Positions 30,672 through 62,631 of a stretch of 64,000 bases of DNA are shown in pieces (positions within the stretch are counted from its first letter, which is position 1; each line of letters starts with the position of its first letter). The stretch is from assembly GCA_965218585.1 (NCBI GenBank), contig CBDCLE010000026.1, positions 288,001 through 352,000 of the forward strand, read 5' to 3'. Origin of the DNA: Terriglobia bacterium (GTDB lineage: Bacteria > Acidobacteriota > Terriglobia > 20CM-2-55-15). The notes under the pieces are model-generated. The model was not told the origin of the DNA, did no database searches, and saw only the letters and a list, made by a program, of their open reading frames with translations. The position numbers were made by a program, and so were the translations under genes.

Positions 30672-30748
30672 GCTCGCGATCACGATGATCGCGAGCGTCG
30701 CCGGTCGTTCGGACAGGATGTCCGAATGAACGACCGAGCGAAATCTTC
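30672..30748. repeat. structured two-hairpin element, copy A
   Basis: GCTCGCGATC-ACGAT-GATCGCGAGC GTCGC CGGTCGTTC GGAC-AGGAT-GTCC GAAT GAACGACCG AGCGAAATCTTC; homologous to 62555-62631. Confidence 0.75.
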
Positions 30749-30789
30749 CACGACCGCACACCTTCGCACTGTTAGGCCCCCCCCGATTC

Positions 30790-31197
30790 TCAAGTCTCTA
30801 ATCCGCCAATCGCCGCGTTCGCCACTTGCTCGTCCTCGGCGGACTTTACACCGCTCACACCGACAGCTCCGAGGACCTTACCGTCGACCACTACCGGAAC
30901 ACCTCCCTGGATTGGAACGATGCCGTCCACAGCCATGAAACCGGGCCGGGGACCTGTGACCATCTCCTCCACTTCCTTTGAAGTTCGGCTGAAATTGGCA
31001 GCTGTCCGTGCCTTTCCGATGGCCACGGCGAGGCTTCCGGTCTGGACCCCGTCCATCCTCTGGAACATGATCAGGTTCGCCGCTCGATCGACAATGGCAA
31101 CGGCAACCGTCCAGTTGTTATCGCGGGCCTCGACTTCAGCCGCCGCCATCATGGCCTGTGCGCCTTCTAACGTGATGAATTGATTAGTTCCAAGCAT
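30790..31197 (-). CDS. GlcG/HbpS family heme-binding protein
   Basis: VAVAIVD, QRMDG, KARTA and GGVPV...GAVGVSG motifs. Confidence 0.88.
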   Translation of the reverse strand: MLGTNQFITLEGAQAMMAAAEVEARDNNWTVAVAIVDRAANLIMFQRMDGVQTGSLAVAIGKARTAANFSRTSKEVEEMVTGPRPGFMAVDGIVPIQGGVPVVVDGKVLGAVGVSGVKSAEDEQVANAAIGGLET

Positions 31198-31370
31198 GCT
31201 TTTCGACTCCTTAGACAGATGGTCATTCGTAAGACTCCGGATAGAGGTGTTCGTTGCTATTGTGACGACTGATTCTGCCCTGAAACACGTGACCATTTCC
31301 ATAAGACACTGATATTACTCGCATTCGATGTCTGGACAGACTGTTGCACATTACTCCCCTGGAGCGCGAT

Positions 31371-31784
31371 ATGAAAACGCAGATTTCAGCAAACGAGTTA
31401 CTCAAGCGCTACACACGGACACTCCTGCCTACAGTGAGGCCCTCGCCCGGGGACGGTTTCCTATCTTCAGAGGGTCTGTCAGCAGCGAAAAGGATCGAAT
31501 CAGGGGCACGGTTGTCGAAAACATCCTCTGCCACAACGTCGTCGTCAAGAGCGAGATCGAAGAGCTGTCCGCCTGAGTTTCGACGAGCATTTCGGCAACG
31601 AACTCGGGAACCTCAATGAATTCGAAAGAGACGTCCTTGTAGGGATGGAATCGGGAACGATCAAGGTGACTCCGACAGGCCGCCTGTTCATCCGGCGAAT
31701 AGCCCAGGTTTTCGATCAGTATCACGCCGCAGCAGTCGCGTCCCAAACCGTAAAAAAAGGGGTCTTCCGAAAACCCTGCCATAG
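31371..31784 (+). pseudogene. hemN-like remnant (N-terminus joined to the C-terminal domain, frameshifted)
   Basis: MKTQISANELLKRY followed directly by PAYSEALARGRFPIFRG...DRIRGTVVENILCH and LSFDEHFGNEL...IKVTPTGRLFIRRIAQVFDQY in changing frames; no CxxxCxxC core. Confidence 0.72.
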
Positions 31785-31888
31785 TCGTCAGAGTCCCCCT
31801 AAAATCTGCCGTTTCCGAGATCGGCTGTTGTATAGTTTTCGAGTCGCGACGCGGAAATTTTTTGTCTTTGTTGTCAGAAGGAACAGGT

Positions 31889-33553
31889 ATGAGTTCGAAT
31901 CACAGAAGGGAGCCCACTGGGATGAACCGGCGGACGTTCCTTGGGACAGGAGCAATGGCCGCGGCGGGTCTGCTTGTGGGTGGCAAGCCGGCAAACTACG
32001 CCTCAGCCCAAGACATGCGTTTGACCACAGCGGGCGGCACCGTGAGGACCCAGGCCGGACGCGTCCGGGGTCCCCTGAAGGACGGCGTCCATCAGTTCTG
32101 GGGCGTGCCCTATGGCGCGCCGACCGACGGTATGAACCGTTTCATGCCCCCTCAAAAGCCGGCGCCCTGGTCCGGTGTTCGTGACCATTTCCAGCTTGGC
32201 TTCAGGGCACCGCAAGCACCCGGAGCCAGCGAATCCGCCCCTGTTGTCTTCGCATTGAATCGAGGAACCCGGGACGGCGAAGATTCTCTGACGACGAACA
32301 TATTCACGCCCGGTCTGGACAACCAGAACCGACCGGTGATGGTCTGGTTGCACGGAGGCGGCTTCACTGGCGGGTCGGGAAACTTCCTCCTATACGACGG
32401 CACGAACCTGGCCAAGAAGGAAGACGTCGTCGTTGTCGTCGTCAATCACCGCCTGAACATCTTCGGATTCCTCCACCTGGCAGATATCGGCGGCGACAAG
32501 TGGGCGCAGTCGACCAACACGGGCGTGCAGGATCTTGTCGCAACATTAGAGTGGGTCCGGGACAATATCGAGAATTTCGGCGGAAATCCCGATAACGTCA
32601 CGATCATGGGTCAGTCAGGTGGCGGAGGAAAGACCACGACGCTGATGGCCATGCCCTCAGCCCAGGGCCTGTTCCATCGCTCGATCGCCCAGAGCGGTTC
32701 GGCCTTCAGGGGCACGCTGGCCTCGGACGCGGGCGAAGGCGCCGAACGCTCTCTCGCCAAGCTCGGACTCGGAACCCACCAGTTGGATGAGCTTCAACGA
32801 ATCAGCGTGGCCCAGATCCAGGATGCCTTCTACAGTGAACCGCGGATCCGTGGCCTGGGTAATGGCCCTGTCATCGACGGTAACATCATCCCGCGCCACC
32901 AATGGGATACAACCGCACCCGCGTATTCTGCGAATGTCCCCCTGATGATGGGTTCGACCGAAACCGAGAACGGCTGGGTCGGCCCGCCACCATTCGATCT
33001 GTCGGACGAGGACATGCTCGATCGGTTCACCACACGGCTGGCGAATGACGATCCGGCAAGGGGACAGGGGTTGCTCGAACTCTATAAACGACTCCATCCG
33101 GAAAAGAGAAACCAGATACTATGGCTGACGGCAGAATCGGACAACTCGCGGCGGTGGAACGCTCAATCCCTGGGGCGGCTGAAGTATGACCAGGGAACAG
33201 CTCCCAGCTACCTGTATTTCTTCGACTGGTATTCGCCGGTACACGACAACCGGATGGGCGCTTACCACACGCTGGATATTCCCTTCGTGTTCTACAACGT
33301 GGACATCGCGGCGTCGATGTTGGGCTCGGCCCAGTCGCGCTACCCACTGGGACACGTGATGAGCGCGGCATGGGCCGCGTTTGCCAGAAACGGGAACCCG
33401 GACCATGCGGACATGCCACACTGGCCGGCGTTCAACCCGAATGAGTACCCGACGATGATCCTGGGCGACAACGTCCGGGTTGAAAACGACCCCAACCACG
33501 AAGAGAGGATGGCCCTGGCCGACTTGCGGGGAAGCGAACTGAGCGACGACTAA
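31889..33553 (+). CDS. type-B carboxylesterase, Tat-exported (paralog 1)
   Basis: NRRTFLG twin-arginine signal; WLHGGGF, GQSGGG, E (ETEN), H (AYHTLD). Confidence 0.92.
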   Translation: MSSNHRREPTGMNRRTFLGTGAMAAAGLLVGGKPANYASAQDMRLTTAGGTVRTQAGRVRGPLKDGVHQFWGVPYGAPTDGMNRFMPPQKPAPWSGVRDHFQLGFRAPQAPGASESAPVVFALNRGTRDGEDSLTTNIFTPGLDNQNRPVMVWLHGGGFTGGSGNFLLYDGTNLAKKEDVVVVVVNHRLNIFGFLHLADIGGDKWAQSTNTGVQDLVATLEWVRDNIENFGGNPDNVTIMGQSGGGGKTTTLMAMPSAQGLFHRSIAQSGSAFRGTLASDAGEGAERSLAKLGLGTHQLDELQRISVAQIQDAFYSEPRIRGLGNGPVIDGNIIPRHQWDTTAPAYSANVPLMMGSTETENGWVGPPPFDLSDEDMLDRFTTRLANDDPARGQGLLELYKRLHPEKRNQILWLTAESDNSRRWNAQSLGRLKYDQGTAPSYLYFFDWYSPVHDNRMGAYHTLDIPFVFYNVDIAASMLGSAQSRYPLGHVMSAAWAAFARNGNPDHADMPHWPAFNPNEYPTMILGDNVRVENDPNHEERMALADLRGSELSDD

Positions 33554-33566
33554 AAATTGATTTTTT

Positions 33567-33637
33567 CTGTAGGTGCTGTCTATGACCGCACGTTTACGAT
33601 TCGCAAACTTTTGTGCGGTCATAGACCGCACCTACAG
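33567..33637. repeat. GTAG-type REP doublet (REPIN)
   Basis: CTGTAGGTGCTGTCTATGACCGCAC...GTGCGGTCATAGACCGCACCTACAG. Confidence 0.85.
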
Positions 33638-33657
33638 TTTTGTCAGGAGGTATGAGC

Positions 33658-35319
33658 ATGAGTTCGAAACGTGACAAGGAGCGGTCCGGGATGGATCGAC
33701 GAACTTTTCTCGGAACGGGAGCCATGGCCGCGGCAGGCCTGCTTGTTGGGAGTAGGACAACTCAGGCTTCGGCCCAGGATATGCGACTGACAACTATGGG
33801 CCACACGGTGTCGACCCGGTCGGGGCGGGTTCGGGGTCTCGTCAAGGACGGTGTCCAACAGTTCTGGGGTGTGCCCTACGGAGCACCCACCGATGGAATG
33901 AACCGCTTCATGCCTCCGGAAAAGCCAGCACCGTGGTCCGGTGTCCACGACCACTTCCAGATCGGCCACAGAGCACCCCTTGCGCCCGGTGCCGGGCCGC
34001 CGGCTCCCGTCGTCCTAGCACTGGACCGAAGAGACGAGGAGGGCGAAGACTGCCTCAGCGTCAACGTGTTCACGCCGGGTACGGACAACAAAGCCCGGCC
34101 GGTGATGGTGTGGATGCACGGCGGTGGATTCTCAGGAGGAGGGGGAAACTACCTCCTCTACGACGGGACGAACCTGGCCAAGAAAGAGGACGTGGTCGTG
34201 GTGGTGGTCAACCACCGCCTGAACATCTTCGGATTCCTGCATCTGGCGGATATCGGCGGCGACAAGTGGGCACGGTCGACCAACATGGGTGTTCAGGATC
34301 TGGTCGCAACATTGGAGTGGGTCCGGGACAACATCGAAAACTTCGGGGGCAATCCGGATAACGTAACGATCTTCGGTCAATCCGGAGGCGGCAGCAAGAC
34401 GACGACGCTGATGGCCATGCCCTCGGCTGAAGATCTGTTCCATCGCTCGATTGCCCAGAGCGGTTCCGCGTTCACCGGCACACTTGCATCAGACGCCAGC
34501 GAAGCGGCCAAACGGTTCATTCGAAAGCTCGGACTGAACACCAGCCAGTTGGACCAACTTCAGAGGCTGCATTTCAGAGAGATCCAGGACGCGTTTTACA
34601 GCGATCCCCGGATTCCACGATTGGGCTCGGGCCCGGTAATCGATGGCACGATAATCCCGCGGCACCAGTGGGATCCAACCGCTCCGTCCTACTCGGCGAA
34701 CGTGCCACTGATGATGGGTTCCACCGAAACCGAAGACGGCTGGAGTGGGCCGCCACCATTTGAACTGACTGACCGAGACATGCTGGATCGGTTCGTCACG
34801 CGGCTGGCCAACAGCGATGCGACCAGGGGGCAGGAGTTGCTCGATCTCTACAAGCGGCTCCATCCCGAGAAACGAAACCAGATGCTGTGGCTCACGGCAG
34901 AGTCGGACAACTCGCGGCGCTTCAGAGCACAGACCCTGGGCAGGCTCAAGCACGAACAGGGCGCGGCCCTCAGTTACCTGTACTTCCTCGACTGGCATTC
35001 GCCGGTACACGACAACCGGATGGGCGCCTACCATACTTTGGACATTCCGTTCGTCTTCTACAACATGGATATCGGCGCATCGATGACGGGCTCTTCTCAG
35101 TCGCGTTACGAACTTGCTCATGTGATGAGTGCCGCCTGGGCCGCGTTCGCCAGAAACGGCAACCCGAACCATGCAGACATGCCGAACTGGCCGGCGTTCA
35201 ACCCCACCGACTACCCGACGATGATGTTTGGCGATGAGGTCAGACTCGTCAACGATCCGAACCGGGAAGAGCGCCTGGCGTTGGATAATTTACGTGGAAG
35301 TGAGCTGAGCGACGACTAG
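33658..35319 (+). CDS. type-B carboxylesterase, Tat-exported (paralog 2)
   Basis: DRRTFLG, EDCL, WMHGGGF and GQSGGG; AGGAGG RBS; highly similar to paralog 1. Confidence 0.92.
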   Translation: MSSKRDKERSGMDRRTFLGTGAMAAAGLLVGSRTTQASAQDMRLTTMGHTVSTRSGRVRGLVKDGVQQFWGVPYGAPTDGMNRFMPPEKPAPWSGVHDHFQIGHRAPLAPGAGPPAPVVLALDRRDEEGEDCLSVNVFTPGTDNKARPVMVWMHGGGFSGGGGNYLLYDGTNLAKKEDVVVVVVNHRLNIFGFLHLADIGGDKWARSTNMGVQDLVATLEWVRDNIENFGGNPDNVTIFGQSGGGSKTTTLMAMPSAEDLFHRSIAQSGSAFTGTLASDASEAAKRFIRKLGLNTSQLDQLQRLHFREIQDAFYSDPRIPRLGSGPVIDGTIIPRHQWDPTAPSYSANVPLMMGSTETEDGWSGPPPFELTDRDMLDRFVTRLANSDATRGQELLDLYKRLHPEKRNQMLWLTAESDNSRRFRAQTLGRLKHEQGAALSYLYFLDWHSPVHDNRMGAYHTLDIPFVFYNMDIGASMTGSSQSRYELAHVMSAAWAAFARNGNPNHADMPNWPAFNPTDYPTMMFGDEVRLVNDPNREERLALDNLRGSELSDD

Positions 35320-35472
35320 CGGCCCCTGCGACTGGATGGATTCCGGAATCTGAGAATTCCCTTCTCAGGTTCCGGCTCCAGGCAGTTACCCACCCGGCTC
35401 GAATATCTTTTGGTATAGTCTGAAGACATCAGAAATCCGGTATTCTGTCCCCCTAATTCAGAGAGGAGAAGC

Positions 35473-36270
35473 ATGCGTCGAAGATTTACGTTCTTTCTCG
35501 TCACAACGGCTCTGTTTCTTGGCCTGACGGGCGGCGTGTTCGCCCTGAAGGTTCGGGCCGGAACATTGCAGGCCTCGGCCGAGAACGTCCGAACAGTCCT
35601 GGACGGTGTCTACAGCCAGGAGCAGATGGAGCGCGGCCAGGCCGCATACGAAGCCACCTGTTCGGGCTGTCACGCCTTGAATCTGGTCGGAGGGCGAAAC
35701 GCGGCACTTAAAGGCGACCTCTTCCTCGACAAGTGGAGGGAGTTCAATCTCGACCTGCTCTACGGATTTATTTCTGGTGCCATGCCACCCCGCCAAAACG
35801 AAAACGCGGTGATATTGCCTGACGAAGAGTACCTGGACATCCTGACCTACATCGTCAGCGGGAACGGCGCACCGGCCGGTGAAGACGAACTGACGATGGA
35901 TGAGCTGGCCGAAGTCCGGTTCGTAGGACCGGATGGCCCCCAGCCCCTGCCCCTGGGTGCCCTGGTAAGCGTCGTGGGGTGTCTGGAACGTTCTCCAGAT
36001 AACGACTGGGTCCTGACCAACGGGAGCCAACCGATCCGTTCTCAGACGTTGCCGTTTGACGCAACCACGGATGAACTCATGGACGCTGAGTCTATTCCGC
36101 TCGGCACCGAGACATTCGGGTTACAGGATATGGCCTTCGTCAGAGGCTTCGAGCCGGACGATCATGACACGCACAAGGTCCAGGCGAAGGGCTTATTGAT
36201 CCCGGTGGCCGACAGCCGAAATATCTCGCTCACCACCATGGAAATGATCTCGGCTGAATGTTCGGAGTGA
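35473..36270 (+). CDS. periplasmic monoheme cytochrome c with an extra C-terminal domain
   Basis: Signal peptide, CSGCH, distal Met (GAMPP). Confidence 0.85.
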   Translation: MRRRFTFFLVTTALFLGLTGGVFALKVRAGTLQASAENVRTVLDGVYSQEQMERGQAAYEATCSGCHALNLVGGRNAALKGDLFLDKWREFNLDLLYGFISGAMPPRQNENAVILPDEEYLDILTYIVSGNGAPAGEDELTMDELAEVRFVGPDGPQPLPLGALVSVVGCLERSPDNDWVLTNGSQPIRSQTLPFDATTDELMDAESIPLGTETFGLQDMAFVRGFEPDDHDTHKVQAKGLLIPVADSRNISLTTMEMISAECSE

Positions 36271-38489
36271 TTTCCCGGCGGAGGAATCCTCTTCGCCACG
36301 TTGTCCTCTGCTTCCTGATATCTGCCGTCTTTGCTTCGGGCCCATTGGCCGGACAGGTTTCCGACCCAGCCCCTGACCGGCCGAGTGTCCGCGCGATTCG
36401 TTTAGGTCCCGGTGATGAAATCACCCTGGACGGCCGGCTTGACGAGGCTGTCTGGGATCGGGCCCAACCCGCGACGGACTTCAAACAGGCGGATCCTCTC
36501 AGCGGTGAACCTGCCACCGAAGACACGGACATCCGCGTCGTTTTCAACGAAAACAACCTCTACATCGGCGCAGCATTCTTCGACTCCAATCCTGACGGAT
36601 TGCTTGCCAACCAGATGGTGCGCGATGGAAGCCTGGACTCGGACGACCGCTTCATGTGGACGATCGATCCCCTGTACGACCAGCGCAGCGGGTATTTCTT
36701 CGAAGTCAACCCCGCGGGCGCGATGGGGGATGCCCAGTTGGTGCCTGCAACGGGCGGAACGTTTGGTACCAGCCAGAACCGCGCATGGGATGGCATCTGG
36801 ATGGCGCGGGTTGAAACACACGATGCGGGCTGGACAATCGAAGTTGAAATTCCTTTCAGCACGATCAACTTCGACCCGGAGGCCGAAGCTTGGGGGGCCA
36901 ATTTCCAGAGGACAGTCCGAAGGAAGAACGAAGAAGACATCTGGTCCGGTTGGGCACGGAACGAAGGCCTGTTCAATCTGACAGCCGCCGGCCGAATTGA
37001 AGGCATCGAAGGCGCCAGTCAGGGCGTGGGCCTCGATATACAACCCTATGTGATCGGTACCTACAGTGAAACTGTCGGAAACCCCACTCCAGCTGACTAC
37101 AACGCAGAAGCCGGACTCGATGTTTTTTACAAGCTCACACCTCAGCTCCAGGCGAACCTGACGATCAATACCGATTTCGCGCAGACCGAGGTCGATGACC
37201 GACAGGTGAATCTCACACGATTCCCACTTTTTTTCCCGGAAAAGCGGGACTTCTTCCTTGAGGGAGCGGGCGATTTCGACTTTACGCGGGAACCAAGCAG
37301 GACCATAAGCGCGTTCTTTTCACGCCGTATCGGCCTCAATAACGGACGACCCCAAAAGATCGACTACGGCATGAAACTCGCTGGACAGGCCGCGGGTTTC
37401 AATCTGGGTGTGATGCAGGTCCGCACTGCCCAAGAGCCCGGCGTCGCCGGCGAAGACTTTACCGTCATTCGCCCGAAGCGTCAGTTTTTTAGCCAGTCGT
37501 ATGCGGGCCTGATCTACACCCGCCGCGCGGAACGAGATTCCAACTCCCCCGACCGCCAAACTATTGGTGTGGATTTTCAGTTGGCCACAGCTCGGTTTAG
37601 AGGCGACAAGAACCTTCAGTTCAATGCCTACTATGTGAATACTCCCAATGGCGACGGAAAAGAGGACACCGCTTCTTACGGACTCCGGTTGGTCTTCGCG
37701 AACGAACCCATCAGCAGCCGGATCTGGTTCGTCGCTGTTGATGAAAACTTTGATCCAGCCGTGGGATTCGTCCAACGGACGAACTACCGGCACTTGCAAC
37801 CCGTGATCACGTGGATTCCGCGTCCAGCCAACCATCCATGGATACGTCGGATGCAGCTTCGAACATGGGCCGCACTGATCACCGATGGGGATGGCCGGTG
37901 GTCAGAGCGTAATTATCCGTTCCAATTCGACATCGACCTCCACTCAGGCGACCGGATCAACATCAATATCACCCGAACTACATTCGAACGCCTGCAACGG
38001 GACTTCCGCATCACGCCGGACGTCACGCTTCCCAAGGGCACCGTGTATACATACACGCGCTACCAGTTCAGTTTGAATACGGCAAGCCGGCGTGCGGTTT
38101 CCGGTAGCGCCAGCGCGACAGTGGGTTCGTTCTATTCGGGAACCCGCCGGGAGATCGCGTTGGGGTTGAATCTGCGGCCACGGCCGGGAGTGGTCGCAAC
38201 ACTGAGTTCGTCATTCAACCGGGTAGAGCTCGACGAAGGGAGTTTCTCCACAAAACTCCTCAGAGCCGTGGTTGATACACAATTCAGCCCCTTCGTATCG
38301 ATCTCGAACAATATCCAGTACGATACGATCAGTCGGATTCTGGGATGGCAGGCCCGCTTCCGCTGGATCGTGGACCCCGGCAACGACATCTACGTCGTGT
38401 GGCTGAACAACTGGCTCGACACGGGAGAAACACTGACTGCCCTGGACCGCAGCGCGGCAGCCAAGTTGGTCTACACACATCGGTTCTAG
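36267..38489 (+). CDS. DUF5916/CBM9-like-domain outer-membrane protein (paralog of 24577-26871)
   Basis: DGRLDEAVW, NTDFAQTEVDDRQVNLTRFPLFFPEKRDFFLEG, C-terminal YTHRF. Confidence 0.85.
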   Translation: MISRRRNPLRHVVLCFLISAVFASGPLAGQVSDPAPDRPSVRAIRLGPGDEITLDGRLDEAVWDRAQPATDFKQADPLSGEPATEDTDIRVVFNENNLYIGAAFFDSNPDGLLANQMVRDGSLDSDDRFMWTIDPLYDQRSGYFFEVNPAGAMGDAQLVPATGGTFGTSQNRAWDGIWMARVETHDAGWTIEVEIPFSTINFDPEAEAWGANFQRTVRRKNEEDIWSGWARNEGLFNLTAAGRIEGIEGASQGVGLDIQPYVIGTYSETVGNPTPADYNAEAGLDVFYKLTPQLQANLTINTDFAQTEVDDRQVNLTRFPLFFPEKRDFFLEGAGDFDFTREPSRTISAFFSRRIGLNNGRPQKIDYGMKLAGQAAGFNLGVMQVRTAQEPGVAGEDFTVIRPKRQFFSQSYAGLIYTRRAERDSNSPDRQTIGVDFQLATARFRGDKNLQFNAYYVNTPNGDGKEDTASYGLRLVFANEPISSRIWFVAVDENFDPAVGFVQRTNYRHLQPVITWIPRPANHPWIRRMQLRTWAALITDGDGRWSERNYPFQFDIDLHSGDRININITRTTFERLQRDFRITPDVTLPKGTVYTYTRYQFSLNTASRRAVSGSASATVGSFYSGTRREIALGLNLRPRPGVVATLSSSFNRVELDEGSFSTKLLRAVVDTQFSPFVSISNNIQYDTISRILGWQARFRWIVDPGNDIYVVWLNNWLDTGETLTALDRSAAAKLVYTHRF

Positions 38490-38581
38490 AAAGCTGACGG
38501 AGATCAGGCCTCAACCGTCAGCCGCGGACGCAAAACTGACAAGTGAGGCCAGGACTGAATCGTTAGACAGGAGGAATTCAC

Positions 38582-39301: not shown

Positions 39302-39358
39302 AAAGTGGGACAGATCACTCTTTTTGCGTGCAAAAAGAGTGACCTGTCCCCACTTTTT
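39301..39358. terminator. long palindrome between convergent genes (bidirectional terminator or repeat element)
   Basis: AAAAGTGGGACAGATCACTCTTTTTGC-GT-GCAAAAAGAGTGACCTGTCCCCACTTTT. Confidence 0.65.
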
Positions 39359-42455: not shown

Positions 42456-42470
42456 CAGCGTCTCGTCCAA

Positions 42471-42505
42471 AGAGAACGGGATGCCAGATAGGCGTCCCGC
42501 TCTCT
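42471..42505. terminator. hairpin between convergent genes
   Basis: AGAGAACGGGATGCC-AGATA-GGCGTCCCGCTCTCT. Confidence 0.55.
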
Positions 42506-42552
42506 TCTCAAACTGTCAAACCCACCAGCGAAATCTTCGGCGCCAGCCGAGT

Positions 42553-42960
42553 CTAGTTGACGGCCGGATCGTTCGGATTAGAAGATCCCGCAAACAGACT
42601 GCGGCCTTCCTTTGTAACCGTCGAAGCGTTCACCATCGGCGATCCATCCCGCGCCAGAGCGCCTTCCACGCTTACAGCGTCACCTGGCTGCAACGTATCG
42701 GGCAACCATCCCTGCCTGAAAAGACGGGTTGGAGGGCCGCCTTCAACGGCGTAGTTGGTCACCTGGCCGTTTTCGCCTCTCACATCCACATAGAAATAGA
42801 TGTGCGGGCTCATCCACTCCATCTTCGTCACGGTACCTTCGAGCTCGATCCGTTTGTCCGCGTCGTATTGCGCGGCAAACGAATGGTGGGCGCTTGCCGT
42901 TGCGCCTGCCAGCGCGAGGCCAAACACTACGCCAAAAACGATCAACAGATTCCATTTCAT
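42553..42960 (-). CDS. DUF6152-like periplasmic protein (copy 1)
   Basis: Signal peptide ending ASA|HHSF; GTVT..EW.SPH; GW...TLQPGD.V.V.G. Confidence 0.8.
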   Translation of the reverse strand: MKWNLLIVFGVVFGLALAGATASAHHSFAAQYDADKRIELEGTVTKMEWMSPHIYFYVDVRGENGQVTNYAVEGGPPTRLFRQGWLPDTLQPGDAVSVEGALARDGSPMVNASTVTKEGRSLFAGSSNPNDPAVN

Positions 42961-42980
42961 CAGATTCTTTACCTCCAGAC

Positions 42981-43697
42981 CTAGCCCTGGGGACCTATAA
43001 CGACGCCAGGTACCAGATGTTCCGCATCTCTTTCGTTCTCCGTGCATGTGTAGTCCATGACGCGATCGTTTTCCATCAGTTCGAAGGTCTTGCTTACCGT
43101 GAACGGCTCTGTATAGAAGAGGGGGTCCTCTATGGTGATTTCCCAATCGAGCGTGTTCGAATCGGTTCTTCGAATGCGCTCCTCCAGCCGCAATTGATCA
43201 CTGTGCTGGTGACCGATATTGTCCAGATCGGCTCTCGCGTTGATGCCCACGGTTTCGAAGATCAGCGTATCTCCTTCATAACGACCCACAGAGTGTCCCA
43301 TCCATTCGGGAGCGGCGAAAACGATGTCCGGATGATCCCGGCCATCGGTGTACACGATTCGAAAGGTGCGGCGGACCTCATAGGCGATAATGAGCATTTC
43401 AGGCGTCTGCATGATCCTGAAGGGAAAGTTGGCCATCCAGGTTCGGCTTGGGCCCATCGGCAGACAGCGCGCTGCGGTGTTCAGGGCGTGATCGAAGTTC
43501 ATATAGCGTTCAAGCCCGTAGTCGGTATAAGGAAGTTCGCCCACCTGTCGCTCGAAGTTCGGGCTCAGGACGGCGTTGCCCGATCCGATCCAGAGCCCAC
43601 TTACATCGGGCATGGGTCCGGACTGAGCGAGGGCGGCGGCCGGAGCTATGCTCAACAACACCACAGCAGCCATGGTCGGTACAAAAGCTGATCTCAT
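42981..43697 (-). CDS. conserved periplasmic hypothetical protein, partner of DUF6152
   Basis: PDVSGLW, RCLPMGP, DGRDHP, WMGHSVGRYEGDTL, HSDQLRLEER and YTCTEN. Confidence 0.8.
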   Translation of the reverse strand: MRSAFVPTMAAVVLLSIAPAAALAQSGPMPDVSGLWIGSGNAVLSPNFERQVGELPYTDYGLERYMNFDHALNTAARCLPMGPSRTWMANFPFRIMQTPEMLIIAYEVRRTFRIVYTDGRDHPDIVFAAPEWMGHSVGRYEGDTLIFETVGINARADLDNIGHQHSDQLRLEERIRRTDSNTLDWEITIEDPLFYTEPFTVSKTFELMENDRVMDYTCTENERDAEHLVPGVVIGPQG

Positions 43698-55405: not shown

Positions 55406-55462
55406 CTGCTGGTCGCCTTCAGGTTCTTCTGACCGAATACCGAATCGATTCAGTTTGACAAC

Positions 55463-56044: not shown

Positions 56045-56201
56045 GTGACATGTCCCTCCAGTCTGACTCTGAGGTAGGTTGGAAACCAATTCAGAGTTTT
56101 TCTGTTTGCATGTGGCACCAGCTTATATCCGTGTGACGAAAGACTGGATGGATCTTACGGTTGAAGCTCATCCCCCGAAGCCCGGTTCGACATATCAACT
56201 C

Positions 56202-57005
56202 TCAATTCTCTTGTCTCGCTTCCAACGACGCCGCGAGGGAAGCCAATTCTGGCTCGTCAGGTTGCGTGTTGTGATTGAAGTACGTCTCGATGGAAACACG
56301 CGACTCGGCGAAGCCGGCCTGGACCCACGCCTTCCGCCACAGGTGGACCATGTCGCCGCGGCCTACGAGATGGATGTGCGTCTCATCGAGCGCCGTGAGT
56401 TGACCGGGCACGCTTTCCTGGACCCGGCCCGCCAGACCCGGCCAATCTGAAGGCGGCTCTGTTAGTGAAAAGGCAAACGAGAAGTTCGAATGCTCGCGGG
56501 CGAGTTGGCCAAGCTCAGGCAGCAGGACCCGGTCTTCTTGTTCCCGAAAACCGGCATAGAGTGCAAGCGGCCGGGATTCACCCTCGGCCAATGCCTTTCG
56601 GGCAAAGCCGTACAACGGGCCGATTCCCGTCCCGGTCGCGACACCGACGATGCGTGTAGCTTCTGGATCGATTTCGTTCTGGATCGGGTTGTGATAAGGG
56701 CCGTCGAAGTATATGTCGTCACCTTGAGACAGTTTTTCGAGGCGCGGTGTGAGCTTCCCGTCGGGAATCACGCGGAAGAGGTGCGAAAATCGCCGCCTGT
56801 CCGGGTCTCCATGCGAGACCGTGTAGGCATGCCGTGCATAAGTACCATTGCCGTTTCGTAAGGCCAGGGCCAACACATGACCGGGCTCGTAGGCCGCCTC
56901 GTTGTCATCGGCGGCTTCAAGCGTCAGCCAGACGCTTCCCCGTGCCATCGCACGATTCTCAATGACCCGCGCCGGACGCCAGTATCCCAACCCTACTCCT
57001 CTCAA
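56202..57005 (-). CDS. ferredoxin-NADP-reductase-type FAD/NAD(P)-binding oxidoreductase
   Basis: HAYTV, GKLTP, GPY, ATGTGIGP and GRVQ motifs; start uncertain. Confidence 0.82.
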   Translation of the reverse strand: MRGVGLGYWRPARVIENRAMARGSVWLTLEAADDNEAAYEPGHVLALALRNGNGTYARHAYTVSHGDPDRRRFSHLFRVIPDGKLTPRLEKLSQGDDIYFDGPYHNPIQNEIDPEATRIVGVATGTGIGPLYGFARKALAEGESRPLALYAGFREQEDRVLLPELGQLAREHSNFSFAFSLTEPPSDWPGLAGRVQESVPGQLTALDETHIHLVGRGDMVHLWRKAWVQAGFAESRVSIETYFNHNTQPDEPELASLAASLEARQEN

Positions 57006-57041
57006 ATCACAAATGAAGATTGCTCGACTGCCTTCACGATC

Positions 57042-57590
57042 TCAGTTGGGAAACAGGTCGAGCAAACAGGCCATCGTCCTCTGCAGCTGTGCGCTTTGGG
57101 CGGGCTTGAAATCCCTTTCCACGAATGAATCCCTCGTCGTGACCCTCATCCACTCGATTTCGGTTTCAGCAAGTGTTTCAGCCTGTTCCAGGTTCCCCTT
57201 GAAATCTCCAAACCAGACGAACAGGCTCGAAATGCAGTTGGAGTCGCTGTCGCTCGTCGCCTCGATTCGGGAACCGTCTATCAAAAGGATACTGACACTG
57301 TCACCGCCATTAATGCATTGACCGCCACCTGATGCCTGAACCGACATCGAGACAACTTCGAACCCCGGCCGGTTAACTTCCGCAGCAAAACGGATGCTGA
57401 AACCTGTCTGACCATCGTCTTCCGAGATCACAATGAAATCACGCGAGACAACATTGGATCGCCCTGAAGCCAGATCCTGATTGGTTACGACCAACTCTGA
57501 ACATTCGGTCTGGGCTGGTTCAACTCCGTGGCCATATGACGGCACTCCAAGGATCAGGATCCATGTACTTAGAAGGGCGCTTCGGGTCAT
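57042..57590 (-). CDS. hypothetical exported protein
   Basis: N-terminal hydrophobic stretch, four Cys, no recognised motif. Confidence 0.55.
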   Translation of the reverse strand: MTRSALLSTWILILGVPSYGHGVEPAQTECSELVVTNQDLASGRSNVVSRDFIVISEDDGQTGFSIRFAAEVNRPGFEVVSMSVQASGGGQCINGGDSVSILLIDGSRIEATSDSDSNCISSLFVWFGDFKGNLEQAETLAETEIEWMRVTTRDSFVERDFKPAQSAQLQRTMACLLDLFPN

Positions 57591-57616
57591 TAGGCCTGTG
57601 TCGGTGAGATTTTCGA

Positions 57617-57668
57617 CTGTAGGTGCACTAGGATCGCAGGTCTGTGCGGTCATAGACCGCACCTACAG
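57617..57668. repeat. GTAG-type REP doublet (REPIN)
   Basis: CTGTAGGTGCAC...GTGCGGTCATAGACCGCACCTACAG. Confidence 0.8.
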
Positions 57669-57676
57669 AAAGAAGC

Positions 57677-58819
57677 TTACTGTGGCCGCCTGGATCGACT
57701 CCCCAGCGAACGCAAGGGCAACGTCCAGGAAACCGTGACCGAACTCGGGCTGTAGCAAATACTGTCGTCACAGGCCTGATATTCGATCGTCCCCGTAAGG
57801 GTCAGCGCCTCCTGTCCCCGAAAAACCGCCTGCGCGCGGGGCGTGCCTTCGAGGATAACCTCCTGGATCAGCGTGAACGGCCCTTCACACACCGGCACCG
57901 TTTCGTCCAGCGGTTCAAAGTAGTACGTCGTCCATTCCGGATACTCCATCGAACGTAGTCTCACGAAGGGTTGCGGGTCGATCCTCAGGCCGATCACCTG
58001 ATAGTCGGTCGCACCTGGAGCATAGACGTGCATCCCAGGTCCGGGTTCGACCTCGAGTGCCAGCGAGAAACGGTTCCCGGCCGCAACTTCCGCATCGCTC
58101 GCATACGTCGTGATGTCGAGTTGAGGTGTTGAGATCCTCGTCGCTTCAACAGGAGCTTCGCTGGCTCCAAGCCGCATGATGATGCTCGACACGGTATTCC
58201 GTTCGATATAAAAATCCTCGAAATACCGTGACGACACCCGGCCGTCGGTCTCGAGAACGAACGTACCTGGAAATGCGATCCCGATCATTATGGGCCTTGG
58301 ATTCATGACCGACACGTAGGTGGCGATGTCGGCAGCCACTATGGGATCGTCGCTGTTCGGACCCTGCGCCCATTCGGGAACGGGGTTGAGGATTCCGTAT
58401 TCTCGGATGGTTCGAGAACCTAGATCCGAGAGCAGCGGAAAGGTAATGCCCTGTTCCTGGGCAAAAGCGCTCAAAACATCAACCGCGTCGTAACTGATCG
58501 CGGCTAAACCGATTCCACGTTCCTGTAGCTCTTCGACCTGGCTTTGCAGCTCCACGAGCTGCGTGCGGCAATACGGTCACCAACTGGCCGAACGGAAAAA
58601 CACCAGCATGGCTCCGTTCGGTCCCATGATGGCATCGCGCGTCCAGGTTTCTCCGTTCTGGTCCATCAAACTGAAATCCGGGACGATCTCGTCCACTTGA
58701 GGACCCAGCTCGGACACATCGATCTTAGAGGGCTCCAGCGTCTGAGCTGCAACCGGGGCCGGCATGATCAGTCCAGCCAACAACAAGAGACTCAGTGATG
58801 AAAGGATTCGAAGTTTCAT
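57677..58819 (-). CDS. secreted AhpC/TSA-like redoxin selenoprotein (W-U-P-Y-C) fused to a DsbD N-terminal-like domain
   Basis: Track ORFs 58577-58819 and 57677-58555 are in frame through TGA 58577-58579: FFRSASW-U-PYCRTQLVELQ; PDFSL.DQNG, FPLLSD; C-terminal HVYAPG...YQACDDSICYSP. Confidence 0.88.
58546..58562 (-). promoter_or_regulatory. putative bacterial SECIS hairpin
   Basis: Perfect GCAGCUC-GUG-GAGCUGC stem-loop starting 14 nt after the UGA. Confidence 0.75.
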
Positions 58820-59013
58820 AGTTTGCCTAATTTATAAGTTTCTGCCTGGAAATTCCAGAAACGGACGCCTAAGTCCAATTCGTCTTCGATGATCGCGGCA
58901 ATCACCTCGAAACGGCGATTACCTGCCGAGCGCTGTTCTTGGGGGGCCTGCGCTCCGAGAACGAGCGTCGGCGCAAGGACCCAGACGCAAATACCGACGA
59001 CACCTAGTCTCAT
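58816..59013 (-). pseudogene. probable DsbA-paralog remnant (signal peptide joined to the C-terminal helix)
   Basis: MRLGVVGICVWVLAPTLVLGAQ...GNRRFEVIAAIIEDEL resembles the neighbour's C-terminal GSHPYQSIVEVIESEL. Confidence 0.5.
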
Positions 59014-59085
59014 ACGCTTCCTCCCTTTAAAGAAGCGTGGCACAAAGAGCGCCCCTTACACTGGAAGCTCGATTACAGGCGGGGA

Positions 59086-59706
59086 TCACCGGCCGGATTC
59101 GATACGCTCCAGTTCCGACTCGATCACCTCAACGATGCTCTGGTACGGGTGGCTGCCTTCCATGATCAGACCGTTGATGAACATCGTGGGAGTGCTGAAC
59201 ACCGCAGCGTTCACGCCTTCCTCGATGTCGACTTCCGCATCGGCCCACTTGACCCCAGAATCCAGGCATTCGTTAAACCGAGCGGTGTCGAGACCGAATT
59301 CCACGGCCCGGCGTTTCAACGCGGGGACGTCGATGTCTTCCTGATTCTCGAACAGGGAGTCGTGAAACTCCCAGAAACGATCCTGCTCGTGAGCGCACAA
59401 GGAGGCTTCGGCTGCCTTCTGAGCGTACTGGTGCGTAAAGATCAACGGAAATTGCCGAAACACGATCCGAACCTGGTCCGGATAGTTCCGCCGCACGGCC
59501 TGGAGCGTGGGATGCAGCCCCGCGCAGAACGGACATTCGAAGTCCCCAAACTCGACGATCGTTACCGGCGCATCGGCCGGTCCGCGGGACGGATGCCCCT
59601 CGGTTCTGATGTCTTTCCGTGACAATTCGAATTGCTGGGCTGCGCCGGCCGAACCCGAGGCCAATGCCAACGCGAAGGTCAGGATTAGAACACGATGGAT
59701 TTTCAC
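59086..59706 (-). CDS. DsbA family thiol-disulfide oxidoreductase
   Basis: GPADAPVTIVEFGDFECPFC, FRQFPL and STPTMFING; signal peptide. Confidence 0.92.
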   Translation of the reverse strand: MKIHRVLILTFALALASGSAGAAQQFELSRKDIRTEGHPSRGPADAPVTIVEFGDFECPFCAGLHPTLQAVRRNYPDQVRIVFRQFPLIFTHQYAQKAAEASLCAHEQDRFWEFHDSLFENQEDIDVPALKRRAVEFGLDTARFNECLDSGVKWADAEVDIEEGVNAAVFSTPTMFINGLIMEGSHPYQSIVEVIESELERIESGR

Positions 59707-59848
59707 TGTGACATCCTCCTCTGGAAGTGTTTCAGTATATTATGAAATTCGTCCTGAATCAGAATTCAGTAAGTCTTCGCCGAAGCCAACGCGAGAACAA
59801 AGTAGGGCTTATGAACAGCGCACAATTCACGCACCGAAAGGGTTCGAA

Positions 59849-60442
59849 ATGAGACAGTACATCTTGTTTTTATTGATCGGAGCCTCGGCATCGATCGTCC
59901 TGGCCTGCGCTCCGGCAGCCGAACCGGTCGAGACCGGACCGGAGTTCAGGCCTACAGCCACCATCAAGGACATCATGCTCGGGGTCATCGACCCGAACGC
60001 CGACGCAATCTGGAACGCGAGTGCGATCGTCGTCGACTTCGAAGGCATCCACGAGAGCTTTCCCGAGACCGACGAAGAGTGGGACGCGCTTCGTTATTCG
60101 GCCCTCACGATCATCGAGGCCAGCAACATGATGCTGATACCCGGACGTCAGGTGGCCGCCCCGGGAGATCGATCAGAGTTTCCGGGTATCGAACTCGAAC
60201 CAGAAGAGATCGCAGATCTGATCGCCGCCGACCCCGACACTTATGCCCAGCTCACGCTGGGACTCCACGACGCTGCAACCCAGATGCTGGCAGTCATCGA
60301 GGACCGGGATTCGGAAACACTGCTGAACATTGGCGACCGCCTGGACCGCGCCTGCGAAAGATGCCATCTCGAGTACTGGTATCCCGACGACGAAGCCGCC
60401 AGGCGAGCCTTTGAAGAGACCGAAGCCCTTCTAGAGCAGTAA
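59849..60442 (+). CDS. cytochrome c'-like lipoprotein
   Basis: Lipobox VLAC; helical; C-terminal ACERCH heme motif. Confidence 0.8.
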   Translation: MRQYILFLLIGASASIVLACAPAAEPVETGPEFRPTATIKDIMLGVIDPNADAIWNASAIVVDFEGIHESFPETDEEWDALRYSALTIIEASNMMLIPGRQVAAPGDRSEFPGIELEPEEIADLIAADPDTYAQLTLGLHDAATQMLAVIEDRDSETLLNIGDRLDRACERCHLEYWYPDDEAARRAFEETEALLEQ

Positions 60443-60454
60443 GACGGTGTATCT

Positions 60455-60906
60455 ATGCAGATAAGACGCTATTGTCTCGGGTTGCTGGCATTGTGCCTGG
60501 TAGCGTTCGGCATCGTGGGTCATGGGAATGGGGTGGCCTCGGCCCAAGGTGGAACCGGATCAATCGAAGGCCACGTCACCCTCAGCGGGAGGCCGCCTGG
60601 TAATCGTGTGATACGGATGGGCGCCGATCCGAAGTGCACGCAAGTGGACATGGGCGAGCTGGTGATCCAGGAAGCGGTCATGGCCACACGGAACGGCAGC
60701 CTCGGCAATGTCTTTGTGAACCTGGAAGGAGATTTCCCCGCAACGCCGGTGACGGAAGAAACGGGTATGTTTGAGATGTCAGATGTGCCCGAGGGAACCT
60801 ATACGATCTACGCCTGGCATGAGGTGTACGGGGAGAACTCAGTCGGACCGTCGAGGTGACTCCCGGCGCCCGGGCCGTCGTGGATTTCACATACGACGGA
60901 GAGTAA
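60455..60906 (+). pseudogene. carboxypeptidase-regulatory-like domain protein remnant (internal deletion plus frameshift)
   Basis: GSIEGHV...DPKC...NVFV then abruptly TEETGMFEMSDVPEGTYTIYAWHE; the natural-looking tail ELSRTVEVTPGARAVVDFTY* is out of frame after GGGGAG at about 60830. Confidence 0.65.
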
Positions 60907-60918
60907 CCCAAGCCGATC

Positions 60919-61290
60919 CTACTGGTACGTCGTTCCGTCGGCTGCTACTACTGAAGTGTAGTTTCCACCCTGCCTGCCATTCTTCAGCGGGTTCATCGTC
61001 ACCGTTATCACGTCGCCGGTTTTGAAGGTCGAGCCTCCGATACCGCGCCGGATCGTGTTTCCGATATTCGACATTTCGATCGCCCAGGCAACAACTTCAC
61101 CGTCCTCACCTTCGACGTCGACATAGAGAAAGACATGCGGGTTTCTGAAGGAAAAGTCCTTAACGGTTCCCGTGACAGTGACTTCAACCTCGTGGTCGAA
61201 CATCGCGTGTGAATGGTGAGAAAGCGCGGGCATTGTCACGCCGATCATTAATCCAGAAGCCAACACGCCTACGACGATGTATTTCTTCAT
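60919..61290 (-). CDS. DUF6152-like periplasmic protein (copy 3)
   Basis: ALS|HHSHAMFD, GTVK.F.FRNPH, W.IE and FKTGD.ITV. Confidence 0.82.
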   Translation of the reverse strand: MKKYIVVGVLASGLMIGVTMPALSHHSHAMFDHEVEVTVTGTVKDFSFRNPHVFLYVDVEGEDGEVVAWAIEMSNIGNTIRRGIGGSTFKTGDVITVTMNPLKNGRQGGNYTSVVAADGTTYQ

Positions 61291-61358
61291 TTCATCCTCT
61301 CTATCTGGCTTTCTGTCGCACCCCTCGCATCATCGAGCGCGCCTACAGACGCAGTGTA

Positions 61359-62423
61359 TCAGTTCTCCCCAATTGCGTAGTGTGCGGCCCACGGGCGGGG
61401 ATCTGTAGGATCCCAGTATCCGGGGGTTCCAGGAGTGCGTTCGTCTAAAATGCCATCGGCGTTGACGAATATATTGCTCGCCGGTCCGTTCGTGTCCGTG
61501 CACGTACTGAAGACCGGCCGGATCTGTGGGTTCGTCTGCAGGTTGTACGTGAAATCTGCGTGGAGCGGCTCGACGAAAGCCACCGGGTCGTAGAGGGTCA
61601 CCTCTCCTATGATCGAGTCGCCCACGCGCTCGTAGCGTTCGACCGCCCTCATCTGGTCGCTCCACTCGAACATCGAATGCGTGGCGTTCCACTGCCGGAT
61701 CTGGTTGGTATGCACCACGAGCGCATCGCCGTCCCAGAAGGCGATCGATTCACCCAACCACTGCGGAAATTGAAAATCCTCGGGCACGTGCCCGCCATCG
61801 GTCTTAATCCAGCGGACTTCGATCGAACTCAGCATGTCGCTGATGAAAACAACCTGGTTCGGACGGACAATAAAATGTTGGGCGCGTGACAAGGCGCGGA
61901 TAAATCCATCGGGAAGGCAGAATGCTGCCGCCCACCAGTGGCGGCCTTCCGCTTCGGCTTTGACCTGCTGGACGTAATACTCCTGATACTGGGGTGCCAG
62001 CGAGGCGGCTATTGTACTGGCCTGGATGTTCCGGCTCCCCAGCCAGCTTCCGCCACCACCCCAGAGCCCGTCCCAATCGGGCAAGGTTTCAATTGTGTGT
62101 GCTGTCCCGCCGTTTGCTTCTTCGAGCCAGGCTTCATAGTGTTCTTCAGCCGTTCTATAAGGATAGGGACTCCTGGTATCGAAATCGTCCCGGCCAGAAC
62201 CCTCTTCACCGTATCTAAAATCGACCTGCATGTCCGTCAGCTGCCGGGCCGTGTTATTTCTGTAGTACGCGGGATCGGTCCAGTGCTCGCGATCCTGGCG
62301 AAAGTCATCGGTTGTAAAGATGGTTTGCGCAACCGCCGGTGCCGCACACAACATGCCGAGTAAAACCACCGCGATCCGGAACCCCTTGCGGTCTCGACTC
62401 ATGCCTGCCTGCTCATGTTTCAT
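61359..62423 (-). CDS. conserved periplasmic hypothetical protein, partner of DUF6152
   Basis: PDWDGLW, FCLPDG, WLGESIAFWDGDALVV, SDQMRAVERY and STCTD. Confidence 0.78.
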   Translation of the reverse strand: MKHEQAGMSRDRKGFRIAVVLLGMLCAAPAVAQTIFTTDDFRQDREHWTDPAYYRNNTARQLTDMQVDFRYGEEGSGRDDFDTRSPYPYRTAEEHYEAWLEEANGGTAHTIETLPDWDGLWGGGGSWLGSRNIQASTIAASLAPQYQEYYVQQVKAEAEGRHWWAAAFCLPDGFIRALSRAQHFIVRPNQVVFISDMLSSIEVRWIKTDGGHVPEDFQFPQWLGESIAFWDGDALVVHTNQIRQWNATHSMFEWSDQMRAVERYERVGDSIIGEVTLYDPVAFVEPLHADFTYNLQTNPQIRPVFSTCTDTNGPASNIFVNADGILDERTPGTPGYWDPTDPRPWAAHYAIGEN

Positions 62424-62554
62424 CTGAATAATCTCAAGAGTCTTACCACATCCTGAATGGGAGCCAAAGCATTTGAAGCGGATCGGGTTCGATCTGATCG
62501 TTCTTCACACTGACTGTACCGTGCTTGCTCCAAAGAGTCGTTCAGCCCCTGAGG

Positions 62555-62631
62555 CCACGCAATCAGGATGATTGCGTGGGTCGCCCCTCGTTCGGTCAGG
62601 ACGACCGATTGAACGAGGGAGCGAAATCTTC
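62555..62631. repeat. structured two-hairpin element, copy B
   Basis: CCACGCAATC-AGGAT-GATTGCGTGG GTCGC CCCTCGTTC GGTC-AGGAC-GACC GATT GAACGAGGG AGCGAAATCTTC. Confidence 0.75.

Follow-up and report, generated by a model that had tools for sequence, protein, structure and literature searches.

A repeated hairpin pair in a Terriglobia genome is very probably the inner part of a decayed IS630/Tc1-mariner-type miniature element

We analysed a 64,000-nt stretch of the genome of a Terriglobia bacterium from soil (assembly GCA_965218585.1, contig CBDCLE010000026.1; G000:C26:288001-352000 in the numbering used here), referred to below as the window, which contains two copies of a 77-nt pair of hairpins. 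This hairpin pair is very probably the best-preserved inner part of an old, decayed MITE (a miniature transposable element with inverted repeats) of the IS630/Tc1-mariner type, present in dozens of copies in the genus. The intact element would be about 277 bp long, with terminal inverted repeats of 22-24 bp starting GTGTCCTGAGTCAG, and would duplicate its target TA, often that of CTAG or CTAA. Its interior would hold three hairpins (0, 1 and 2), the 77 nt corresponding to hairpins 1 and 2 together with the inner edge of the right terminal repeat. In the genome of the window the terminal repeats have eroded, and the hairpin core survives. The likely mover is an IS630-family transposase acting in trans, for example that of the 1150-bp insertion sequences of related species, which have the same type of junctions.

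The genome of the window (G000) comprises 4.55 Mb in 26 contigs, with 57.2% G+C and a completeness of 95.5%. It was compared with the genomes of four other species of the same genus, the congeners G001 to G004, and with genomes of other genera of the family, among them G022.

Two copies of a hairpin pair in the window

Comparison of positions 30672-30748 (copy A) with 62555-62631 (copy B), 77 nt each, gave a gapless alignment with six compensatory pair changes, pairing being intact throughout. Stem 1 differs at three pairs (GCTCGCGATC/GATCGCGAGC in copy A, CCACGCAATC/GATTGCGTGG in copy B), the outer stem 2 at two pairs (CGG/CCG and CCC/GGG, respectively) and the inner stem at one (GGAC/GTCC and GGTC/GACC). 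The four loops read ACGAT, AGGAT, AGGAT and AGGAC, with AGGA in three of them. Realignment thus bears out a preliminary description of the stretch, which had reported the gapless copies, the six compensatory changes and the AGGA loops. The same description had noted that the tail of the unit, AGCGAAATCTTC, recurs alone at 42527, and this also holds: the tail occurs three times in the window (30737, 42527 and 62620), where 0.38 occurrences were expected by chance, and three occurrences were reached in 1 of 100 shuffles.

Two further elements of that description held in part. The linker GTCGC, given as invariant, is present in both copies, but it is not a plain linker: RNAalifold pairs its TCGC with GCGA of the tail, which makes hairpin 2 longer than had been drawn. 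The 77-nt copies are real, but the repeated unit is larger. In copy A it begins near 30571 and includes a third hairpin at 30605-30629, and the whole block homologous to the element of the congeners extends over about 30509-30784. The features of the window that derive, or in the last case probably derive, from the element are the following.

30509-30784, plus strand: whole block of copy A, homologous to the consensus of about 277 bp from congener G003 (global alignment, 194/277 identical)
30509-30530, plus strand: eroded remnant of the left terminal inverted repeat of copy A (partial alignment to GTGTCCTGAGTCAGAAGTTCG)
30605-30629, plus strand: hairpin 0 of copy A, a G+C-rich stem of 10 bp with loop AGGAA, followed by the T-rich CCTCTTGTTC; found in the long form of the repeat
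30672-30696, plus strand: hairpin 1 of copy A, 10 bp, loop ACGAT; 7 of its 10 pairs have changes on both sides among 40 copies
30697-30748, plus strand: linker GTCGC, hairpin 2 (loop AGGAT) and tail AGCGAAATCTTC of copy A
30749-30784, plus strand: eroded remnant of the right terminal inverted repeat of copy A (alignment to the G003 consensus)
62447-62651, plus strand: block of copy B homologous to the MITE, with hairpin 0 deleted and the left part weakly alignable (global alignment, 153/277 identical)
62555-62631, plus strand: hairpin 1 (62555-62579, loop AGGAT), linker, hairpin 2 (loop AGGAC) and tail of copy B
42527-42555, plus strand: solo tail AGCGAAATCTTC with 14 further nt, running into CTA, the TAG stop of the minus-strand open reading frame (ORF) 42553-43146

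Copy number, distribution and covariation

The exact tail occurs 22 times in G000, and an nhmmer search of this genome returned 60-61 copies at E < 0.01, 42-44 of them below 1e-9. A covariance model (R1) was built from 40 G000 copies and contains 27 pairs. The preliminary description had proposed such a model for a genome search, and it found further copies, 63-65 in G000 in all. With the same model 52 copies were found in G001, 46 in G002, at least 90 in G003 and 55 in G004. Outside the genus, copies were found in 2 of 20 genomes of other genera of the family (one and two matches), and a single weak match was obtained among 16 genomes of other families of the class. The strict tail motif gave 34, 37, 16, 94 and 8 occurrences in G000 to G004, respectively, and none in the reversed control. 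The family is dispersed and nearly confined to the genus.

A scan of public genomes with the tail pattern returned at least 39 stretches. Most of those listed were single matches in unrelated phyla, probably due to chance, and the several matches in one Terriglobia metagenome-assembled genome, G002, were the only informative ones among the matches listed. Two exact pattern matches on viral contigs of 2.4 kb, for which the covariance model gave no support at E <= 0.01, were also treated as chance. The one or two copies found outside the genus hint at old presence or transfer. The copy in G022 (locus L048, 1501-1617) is diverged, with a score of 65.9 bits, further compensated stems and the loop ACGAC.

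Metagenome contigs of four runs were examined over 27000-34000 of the window. The depth of the organism in them is about 2x, and contigs are interrupted at the element; no contig in these runs and this interval joins across an empty site. In the bin 30276-30977 the summed contig depth in the public runs X1-X4 is 259-691, compared with about 2-17 in the adjoining bins. Those metagenomes therefore contain a very large number of related copies, presumably contributed by more than one member of the genus.

Pairing is maintained across the copies. In the 40 G000 copies, 91.2% of cells were paired, compared with 30-40% when the partners were slid, and changes on both sides were seen in 15 of the 27 pairs; the observed values were reached in none of 500 shuffles. 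The pair variants that separate copies A and B recur in many other copies (the first pair of hairpin 1 is GC in 19 copies and CG in 15, and the inner stem of hairpin 2 has AU in 20 and CG in 16), and are therefore largely subfamily markers. Some loops are exactly reverse-complemented, from AGGAT to ATCCT: this is the case for hairpin 1 in 5 of the 40 copies and for hairpin 2 in two. Loop inversion combined with multi-base compensation is described as a footprint of template switching within palindromes in the available part of one study (PMC8794818). Covariation of this kind is evidence that the hairpins are maintained, not that the maintained object is RNA. The compensatory changes would have been kept by selection on the hairpins, perhaps aided by palindrome-templated mutation, as the flipped loops suggest.

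Element ends and insertion sites in the congeners

The ends of the element are best seen in G003, for which all 94 copies with the tail motif were examined with 18 kb around each. The consensus of the alignment is 277 nt long, and its 24-nt ends (GTGTCCTGAGTCAGAAGTTCG and its complement) are inverted repeats at 22 of 24 positions. The left repeat was recognisable in 49 of the 94 copies, the right in 33 and both, within 4 errors, in 24, with lengths mostly of 276-301 bp. Immediately outside the repeat, TA was found at 27 of the 49 left ends, at 24 of the 33 right ends, and at both ends of 10 of the 24 copies that have both repeats, compared with a background of 3.4%. On the left the most frequent flanking triplet is CTA (20/49), and on the right TAG (10/33) or TAA (7/33).

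Many copies lie exactly at gene ends, because the element starts with G, so that insertion into the TA of a stop codon rebuilds TAG. Twenty of the 94 copies supply such a stop: the convergent ORF next to them (178-1316 aa) ends in a TAG made up of the last repeat base and the flanking TA. From these junctions we infer that a CTA or TTA on the left flank is the displaced original TAG or TAA. The junctions show the target and the duplication typical of IS630/Tc1-mariner elements: members of the IS630 family insert at TA and duplicate it, and titles cited in the available part of PMC2170065 refer to TA within CTAG.

Presence and absence of the element at orthologous positions were examined for two sites, those of copies A and B. 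The preliminary description had suggested looking for empty sites in relatives, and these exist. Site A is empty in all four congeners, in which the HbpS-like gene and the DAHP synthase gene nearly abut; about 294 nt (30509-30802), with TAAT on both sides, is present in G000 alone. Site B is empty in G001, contains fragments in G002, and in G003 holds a hairpin-0 module without recognisable hairpins 1 and 2 in the printed alignment. One of the two interpretations offered in the preliminary description, a non-autonomous mobile element, was therefore right in kind: the family is dispersed and genus-specific, its sites are polymorphic, and in a congener it has terminal repeats and a TA duplication.

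The 277 nt of the element contain no transposase; the IS630 ORF is 363 aa long. Matches to the DDE_3 domain (PF13358) numbered 35 in G001, 59 in G002, 3 in G003, 18 in G004 and none in G000. The 363-aa protein of G003 scores 268 bits on NCBIfam NF033545, 'IS630 family transposase' (cut-off 100), and has helix-turn-helix and DDE_3 domains. It belongs to an insertion sequence of about 1150 bp with the junctions cTA|GTG...CAC|TAg. The right end of this insertion sequence agrees with the MITE repeat at 14 of 24 positions, where the background over 2132 windows had a mean of 6.1 and a maximum of 13, and the left end at about 11 of 24, counted by eye. The assignment of the element to the IS630 family is well supported, and this particular insertion sequence is a candidate partner.

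The IS630-family matches in G001, G002 and G004 (loci L216-L227) include many that are identical. Copy numbers of the MITE and of the insertion sequence do not track each other, G003 having the most intact MITEs and few insertion sequences.

Decay in the genome of the window

A pattern of the terminal repeat, allowing up to 3 mismatches, matched 79 times in G003, 23 in G002, 17 in G004, 4 in G001 and once in G000. A profile of 17 intact G003 copies was placed at 52 positions in G000. None of these reaches model positions 1-37 and few reach the right end; 46-49 of the 52 cover about 170-250, which corresponds to hairpins 1 and 2. Mean identity to the G003 consensus was calculated by region for 34 tail-anchored G000 copies and for the G003 copies. 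From left to right the values in G000 were 0.00 for the left repeat, 0.41 for hairpin 0, 0.42 for the spacer, 0.74 for hairpin 1, 0.81 for hairpin 2 and 0.12 for the right repeat; the corresponding values in G003 were 0.49, 0.78, 0.74, 0.92, 0.92 and 0.56. The tail of the 77-nt unit corresponds to the inner edge of the right repeat region, and a short tandem duplication is found there in G003, not in G000.

Searches of G000 (95.5% complete, in 26 contigs) by tblastn with the transposase and by blastn with the insertion sequence returned nothing. The G000 copies look immobile.

Orientation relative to genes

Genes were predicted with our own ORF and codon-score caller, which gave 3878 genes in G000, covering 83% of the genome. 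For the 44 best G000 copies, the tail faces the stop codon of the gene on its side in 33 (27 of 30 among the best-scoring), typically at 1-106 nt. Between co-directional genes, 17 copies are antisense and 2 are sense (binomial p = 7e-4), and a further 16 and 9 lie between convergent and divergent genes, respectively. Both copies in the window fit this rule. In G003 the tail faces the stop codon of a convergent gene in 79 of the 94 copies (median distance, about 40 nt). Of the copies between co-directional genes, 50 are antisense and 7 are sense; 29 further copies lie between convergent genes and 8 between divergent genes.

The top strand of the element also tends to lie on the strand of negative GC skew: this holds for 34 of the 44 G000 copies (Fisher p = 4e-4) and for 61 of the 94 G003 copies. 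The G003 figure is near that predicted from the gene-relative bias, because 57-61% of genes are on the leading strand. A bias toward one replication strand was thus rejected as the primary cause, being largely explained in G003 by the bias relative to genes, and we take the latter as primary. Both ends of the element rebuild TAG equally, and the bias must therefore come from its interior. The imbalance of the counts may reflect selection against one orientation within transcripts.

A scan for terminators identified hairpin 0 with its T-rich tail as the sole terminator-like site in copy A, on the plus strand. In both window copies terminator-like sites were found on the plus strand only, and none on the strand of the flanking genes. 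The proposal that hairpin 0 is a one-way terminator, polar in the sense orientation, was not supported, as hairpin 0 is kept in 6 of 7 sense copies and in 43 of 50 antisense copies.

Several of these results weigh against the identification of the element as an IS630-type MITE, or limit it. The orientation counts depend on gene calls that do not come from a curated annotation. No choice of orientation would be expected from a DDE transposase, and the MITE identification accounts for the bias by inference; the bias is present even among the 24 G003 copies with both repeats, of which 17 are antisense, none is sense, 6 are convergent and 1 is divergent. Neither the terminal repeats nor a clean TA duplication can be demonstrated in G000 itself, so that the anatomy of the MITE is taken from the congeners. 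At site A TAAT lies on either side of the inserted block, with the right end of the consensus alignment falling about 18 nt short of it. The terminal match to the insertion sequence is partial (14/24 and about 11/24), and within the MITE nothing resembles the IS630-type insertion sequence apart from words no longer than 11 nt; the true partner could be a different element or one that has died out. Finally, the absence of the transposase from G000 is weak evidence, as assemblies of this kind often omit multicopy insertion sequences.

Alternative explanations

The MITE identification was weighed against three other explanations of the repeat. According to the first, the hairpins are an exapted cassette: the origin is a MITE, whose core the host now retains as a signal at gene ends that depends on orientation, such as a 3'-end stabiliser, an attenuator or a one-way terminator. 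We consider this possible, though rather unlikely. The G000 core has outlived the ends of the element, hairpin 1 having an identity of 0.74 and the right repeat of 0.12 even though the right repeat is nearer to the motif on which the copies were anchored. Pairing has been kept through the changes on both sides in 15 of the 27 pairs, the ratios of antisense to sense copies are 50:7 (G003) and 17:2 (G000) between co-directional genes, the tail faces a stop in 79/94 and 33/44 copies, and the median distance of about 40 nt in G003 would suit such a signal, as would the terminator-like score of hairpin 0 with its T-rich tail on the plus strand of copy A. There are also parallels in the SPRITE and BOX repeats of pneumococcus, as given in the available part of PMC3049150. 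The apparent conservation of the core is, however, partly ascertainment, because the core was what served to locate the copies. No terminator-like site lies on the upstream gene's strand in either window copy, the loss of hairpin 0 predicted for sense copies failed (it is kept in 6/7), and single copies do erode within the core, as at site B in G003, where hairpin 0 is kept without recognisable hairpins 1 and 2.

The second explanation is that the copies are CsrA-titrating small RNAs, each transcribed on the strand with the AGGA loops and offering two or three A(N)GGA loops in the manner of CsrB and RsmZ. The preliminary description had likened the loops to a CsrA-binding repeat and considered a structured non-coding RNA family. 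The AGGAT loop is indeed found in hairpin 1 of 19 of the 40 copies and in hairpin 2 of 23 of the 28 canonical copies. The description had also pointed to a check for csrA, and the genome has two matches to the CsrA family (PF02599), at 78 and 59.5 bits. In addition, 16 of the 40 copies have a T.G wobble in hairpin 1, which is a legal pair on this strand only. Mismatches in the 28 canonical copies are G.T in 20 cases and A.C in 11, and 11 of the 20 come from one inherited position, making this a weak test of the strand.

Other results weigh against such RNAs. No match to Rfam 15 was obtained at the gathering threshold over the whole window, and a search of six copies with E up to 10 gave three matches at chance level, none of them to a Csr or Rsm family (RAGATH-16 scored 17.5 bits against a cut-off of 65.6). 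A crude consensus scan found no sigma-70-like promoter site around either window copy. The strand with the AGGA loops is mostly antisense to adjacent transcription. The flips of the loop to ATCCT (hairpin 1 in 5/40, hairpin 2 in two) are events at the DNA level that destroy the motif, and the number of copies, the empty sites and the terminal repeats are in keeping with a transposon. The identification of the repeat as an RNA gene was thus not supported, and a role as a CsrA sponge is very unlikely.

The third explanation is that the repeat is a repetitive extragenic palindromic (REP) element, or a REPIN, moved by a REP-associated tyrosine transposase (RAYT) of the HUH type that recognises hairpins in single-stranded DNA. 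The preliminary description had envisaged a hairpin-recognised mobile element and proposed a check for a linked HUH/RAYT-like transposase. G+C-rich hairpins, an extragenic location and many copies are shared with such elements. In one subfamily the linker contains CGTC, which recalls the CGTC-tagged REPs described in the available part of PMC3733652; this changes to GGTC wherever the paired base changes. The orientation is correlated with GC skew (34/44 in G000 and 61/94 in G003), although the bias in G003 is about that predicted from the gene-relative bias, with 61% of the flanking genes on the leading strand. Matches to Y1_Tnp are found in every genome of the genus. However, nhmmer and BLAST searches detected nothing similar to the element at any of the 12 Y1_Tnp loci from 5 genomes, nor does the element flank these genes. 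Eight of the 12 were also scanned with the covariance model, which gave only three weak matches, of 7.7 to 13 bits. The Y1 gene on contig C10 of G000 has instead an inverted repeat of its own around it, containing GGGGTCAG and unrelated to the element. Terminal inverted repeats with a TA duplication are not made by single-strand HUH transposition, and the ends point instead to an IS630-family DDE transposase. We regard a RAYT origin as highly improbable.

The Y1 gene just mentioned is an IS200-like Y1_Tnp ORF of 252 aa at L001:1135-1999 (about 115.4-116.3 kb of C10, outside the window), and is bracketed by a 40-nt inverted repeat holding GGGGTCAGAGCCC. It matches the 'TIRYT' arrangement with a GGGGWSAS motif, described for acidobacterial tyrosine transposases associated with terminal inverted repeats in the available part of PMC3733652.

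Readings as integron attC sites or as retroelements were dropped, given that terminal inverted repeats are present and that the copies lie scattered among housekeeping genes.

Module variants and neighbouring genes

A BLAST search of G000 with the region of copy A revealed a long form, corresponding to about 30571-30748 and including the third hairpin, in about 15 copies. There is also a short form, comprising hairpins 1 and 2, and in a few places hairpin 0 occurs on its own. Three short copies (C9, about 110.3 kb and about 114.4 kb; C16, about 20.8 kb) have another hairpin, GGTGCGCTCA(C/T)AGAGCGCACCTACAGG, in the place of hairpin 0, and in the copy at about 138.1 kb of C5 this place is taken by a different, long palindrome. 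Modules thus seem to be exchanged in the left half of the element. In one G000 subfamily an extra mini-hairpin (about CTTTCACATAGAAG) is inserted in the 5' arm of hairpin 2; its copies are at C2:482.6, C23:16.9, C14:6.9, C10:51.0, C15:42.0, C16:22.6, C3:138.8 and C24:294.6 kb. Two copies (C5:32.6 kb and C5:44.8 kb) have a 24-nt hairpin inside the loop of hairpin 2.

At the solo tail at 42527 neither hairpin 1 nor hairpin 2 is present, and the tail ends 15 nt before the TAG stop of the minus-strand ORF. This layout is like the G003 pattern of a right end abutting a stop codon, and 42527-42555 is probably the right-end remnant of another copy, an assignment of low confidence. The surrounding spacer of 97 nt (42456-42552) lies between convergent ORFs that both have TAG stops, and contains a 14-bp hairpin, GAGAACGGGATGCC...GGCGTCCCGCTCTC, with the solo tail after it. 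This spacer could be a heavily reduced relative of the element.

Both window copies lie between minus-strand genes, as had been stated in the preliminary description. The flanking genes are the following.

30790-31302, minus strand: HbpS-like gene (Pfam PF03928, E 1.2e-34), with its stop 39 nt past the tail of copy A
29394-30461, minus strand: DAHP synthase gene (Pfam PF00793, E 3.6e-95), downstream of copy A and on the same strand as the HbpS-like gene
62686-63585, minus strand: pseudouridine synthase gene (Pfam PF00849, E 1.6e-23), with its stop 47 nt past the tail of copy B
61359-62423, minus strand: ORF of 354 aa downstream of copy B, with no Pfam match, not a paralogue of the DAHP synthase

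The genes downstream of the two copies, a DAHP synthase and an ORF without an assigned family, are unrelated, and the hairpin pair is therefore not a leader shared by paralogous genes. This possibility was rejected on comparison of the 355-aa and 354-aa ORFs.

Comparison with known repeat families

The closest known case is the RUP element of Streptococcus pneumoniae, a MITE that is tied to IS630-Spn1 by its terminal repeats and TA target in the available parts of PMC2229807 and PMC3049150. Like the element described here, RUP is there given as small and non-coding, with about 100 copies in one species group, mostly intergenic and inserted at TA. Its terminal inverted repeats are similar to those of a resident IS630-family insertion sequence, whereas the similarity found here is weaker (14/24). 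RUP, at 107 bp, forms one tight hairpin with paired ends, whereas the present element is about 277 bp long with three internal hairpins. Unlike RUP, it has a strong orientation bias relative to the upstream gene, and in G000 its core occurs without its ends.

BOX and SPRITE, also of S. pneumoniae, are presented in the available part of PMC3049150 as modular hairpin repeats enriched just downstream of genes. The present element is like them in its median distance of about 40 nt from stops and in the gain and loss of modules. BOX is stated there to supply the stop codon of 36 genes, to be compared with the TAG in 20 of the 94 G003 copies. SPRITE is described as terminator-like and possibly co-opted, whereas our scan found no terminator-like site on the strand of the gene. 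The present element is unrelated in sequence to BOX and SPRITE, belongs to another phylum and has ends of the TA/IS630 type.

Elements of the REP class, including bacterial interspersed mosaic elements (BIMEs), are extragenic G+C-rich palindromes, often located after genes and in mosaic arrangements, and in these respects resemble the element. The CGTC REPs, according to the available part of PMC3733652, are also without a dedicated transposase. REPs, however, are units of 20-40 bp that mostly come as inverted pairs and carry a fixed unpaired tag (GTAG or CGTC), and the present element is polar, about 277 bp long, and has terminal repeats, a TA duplication and no link to a RAYT. CsrB and RsmZ share with it several hairpins with A(N)GGA loops, and csrA homologues are present in the genome. 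They are single genes or few in number, with their own promoter and terminator, whereas the element occurs as 50-100 mobile copies, mostly antisense and without an Rfam match.

Significance

Our searches of the literature found no description of such elements in Acidobacteria; a large MITE census exists (PMC11602168), with supplementary catalogues that were outside these searches and may list the family. The present work adds a documented MITE family with a candidate IS630 partner for Acidobacteriota. It also clears away a false lead: a repeated hairpin with compensatory changes is not necessarily an RNA gene. Here the changes are markers of transposon subfamilies, and the flipped loops indicate that palindrome processes at the DNA level act as well. 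In annotation, the copies should be masked as repeats, and the 3' ends of abutting genes should be read with an element-supplied TAG in mind.

Only two points go beyond what is ordinary in a family of this kind, namely the orientation bias and the persistence of the core once the ends had decayed. Together they make the family a handy natural experiment on the way in which transposon insertions at gene ends are filtered or co-opted by bacteria. After loss of the transposase, the host may have kept the hairpin core as an RNA or transcription signal acting in one orientation, by shielding 3' ends, by setting read-through, or by presenting AGGA loops to CsrA on the other strand. We think this step unlikely. 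If it did take place, a burst of selfish DNA would have given the genus a shared, portable set of gene-end signals.

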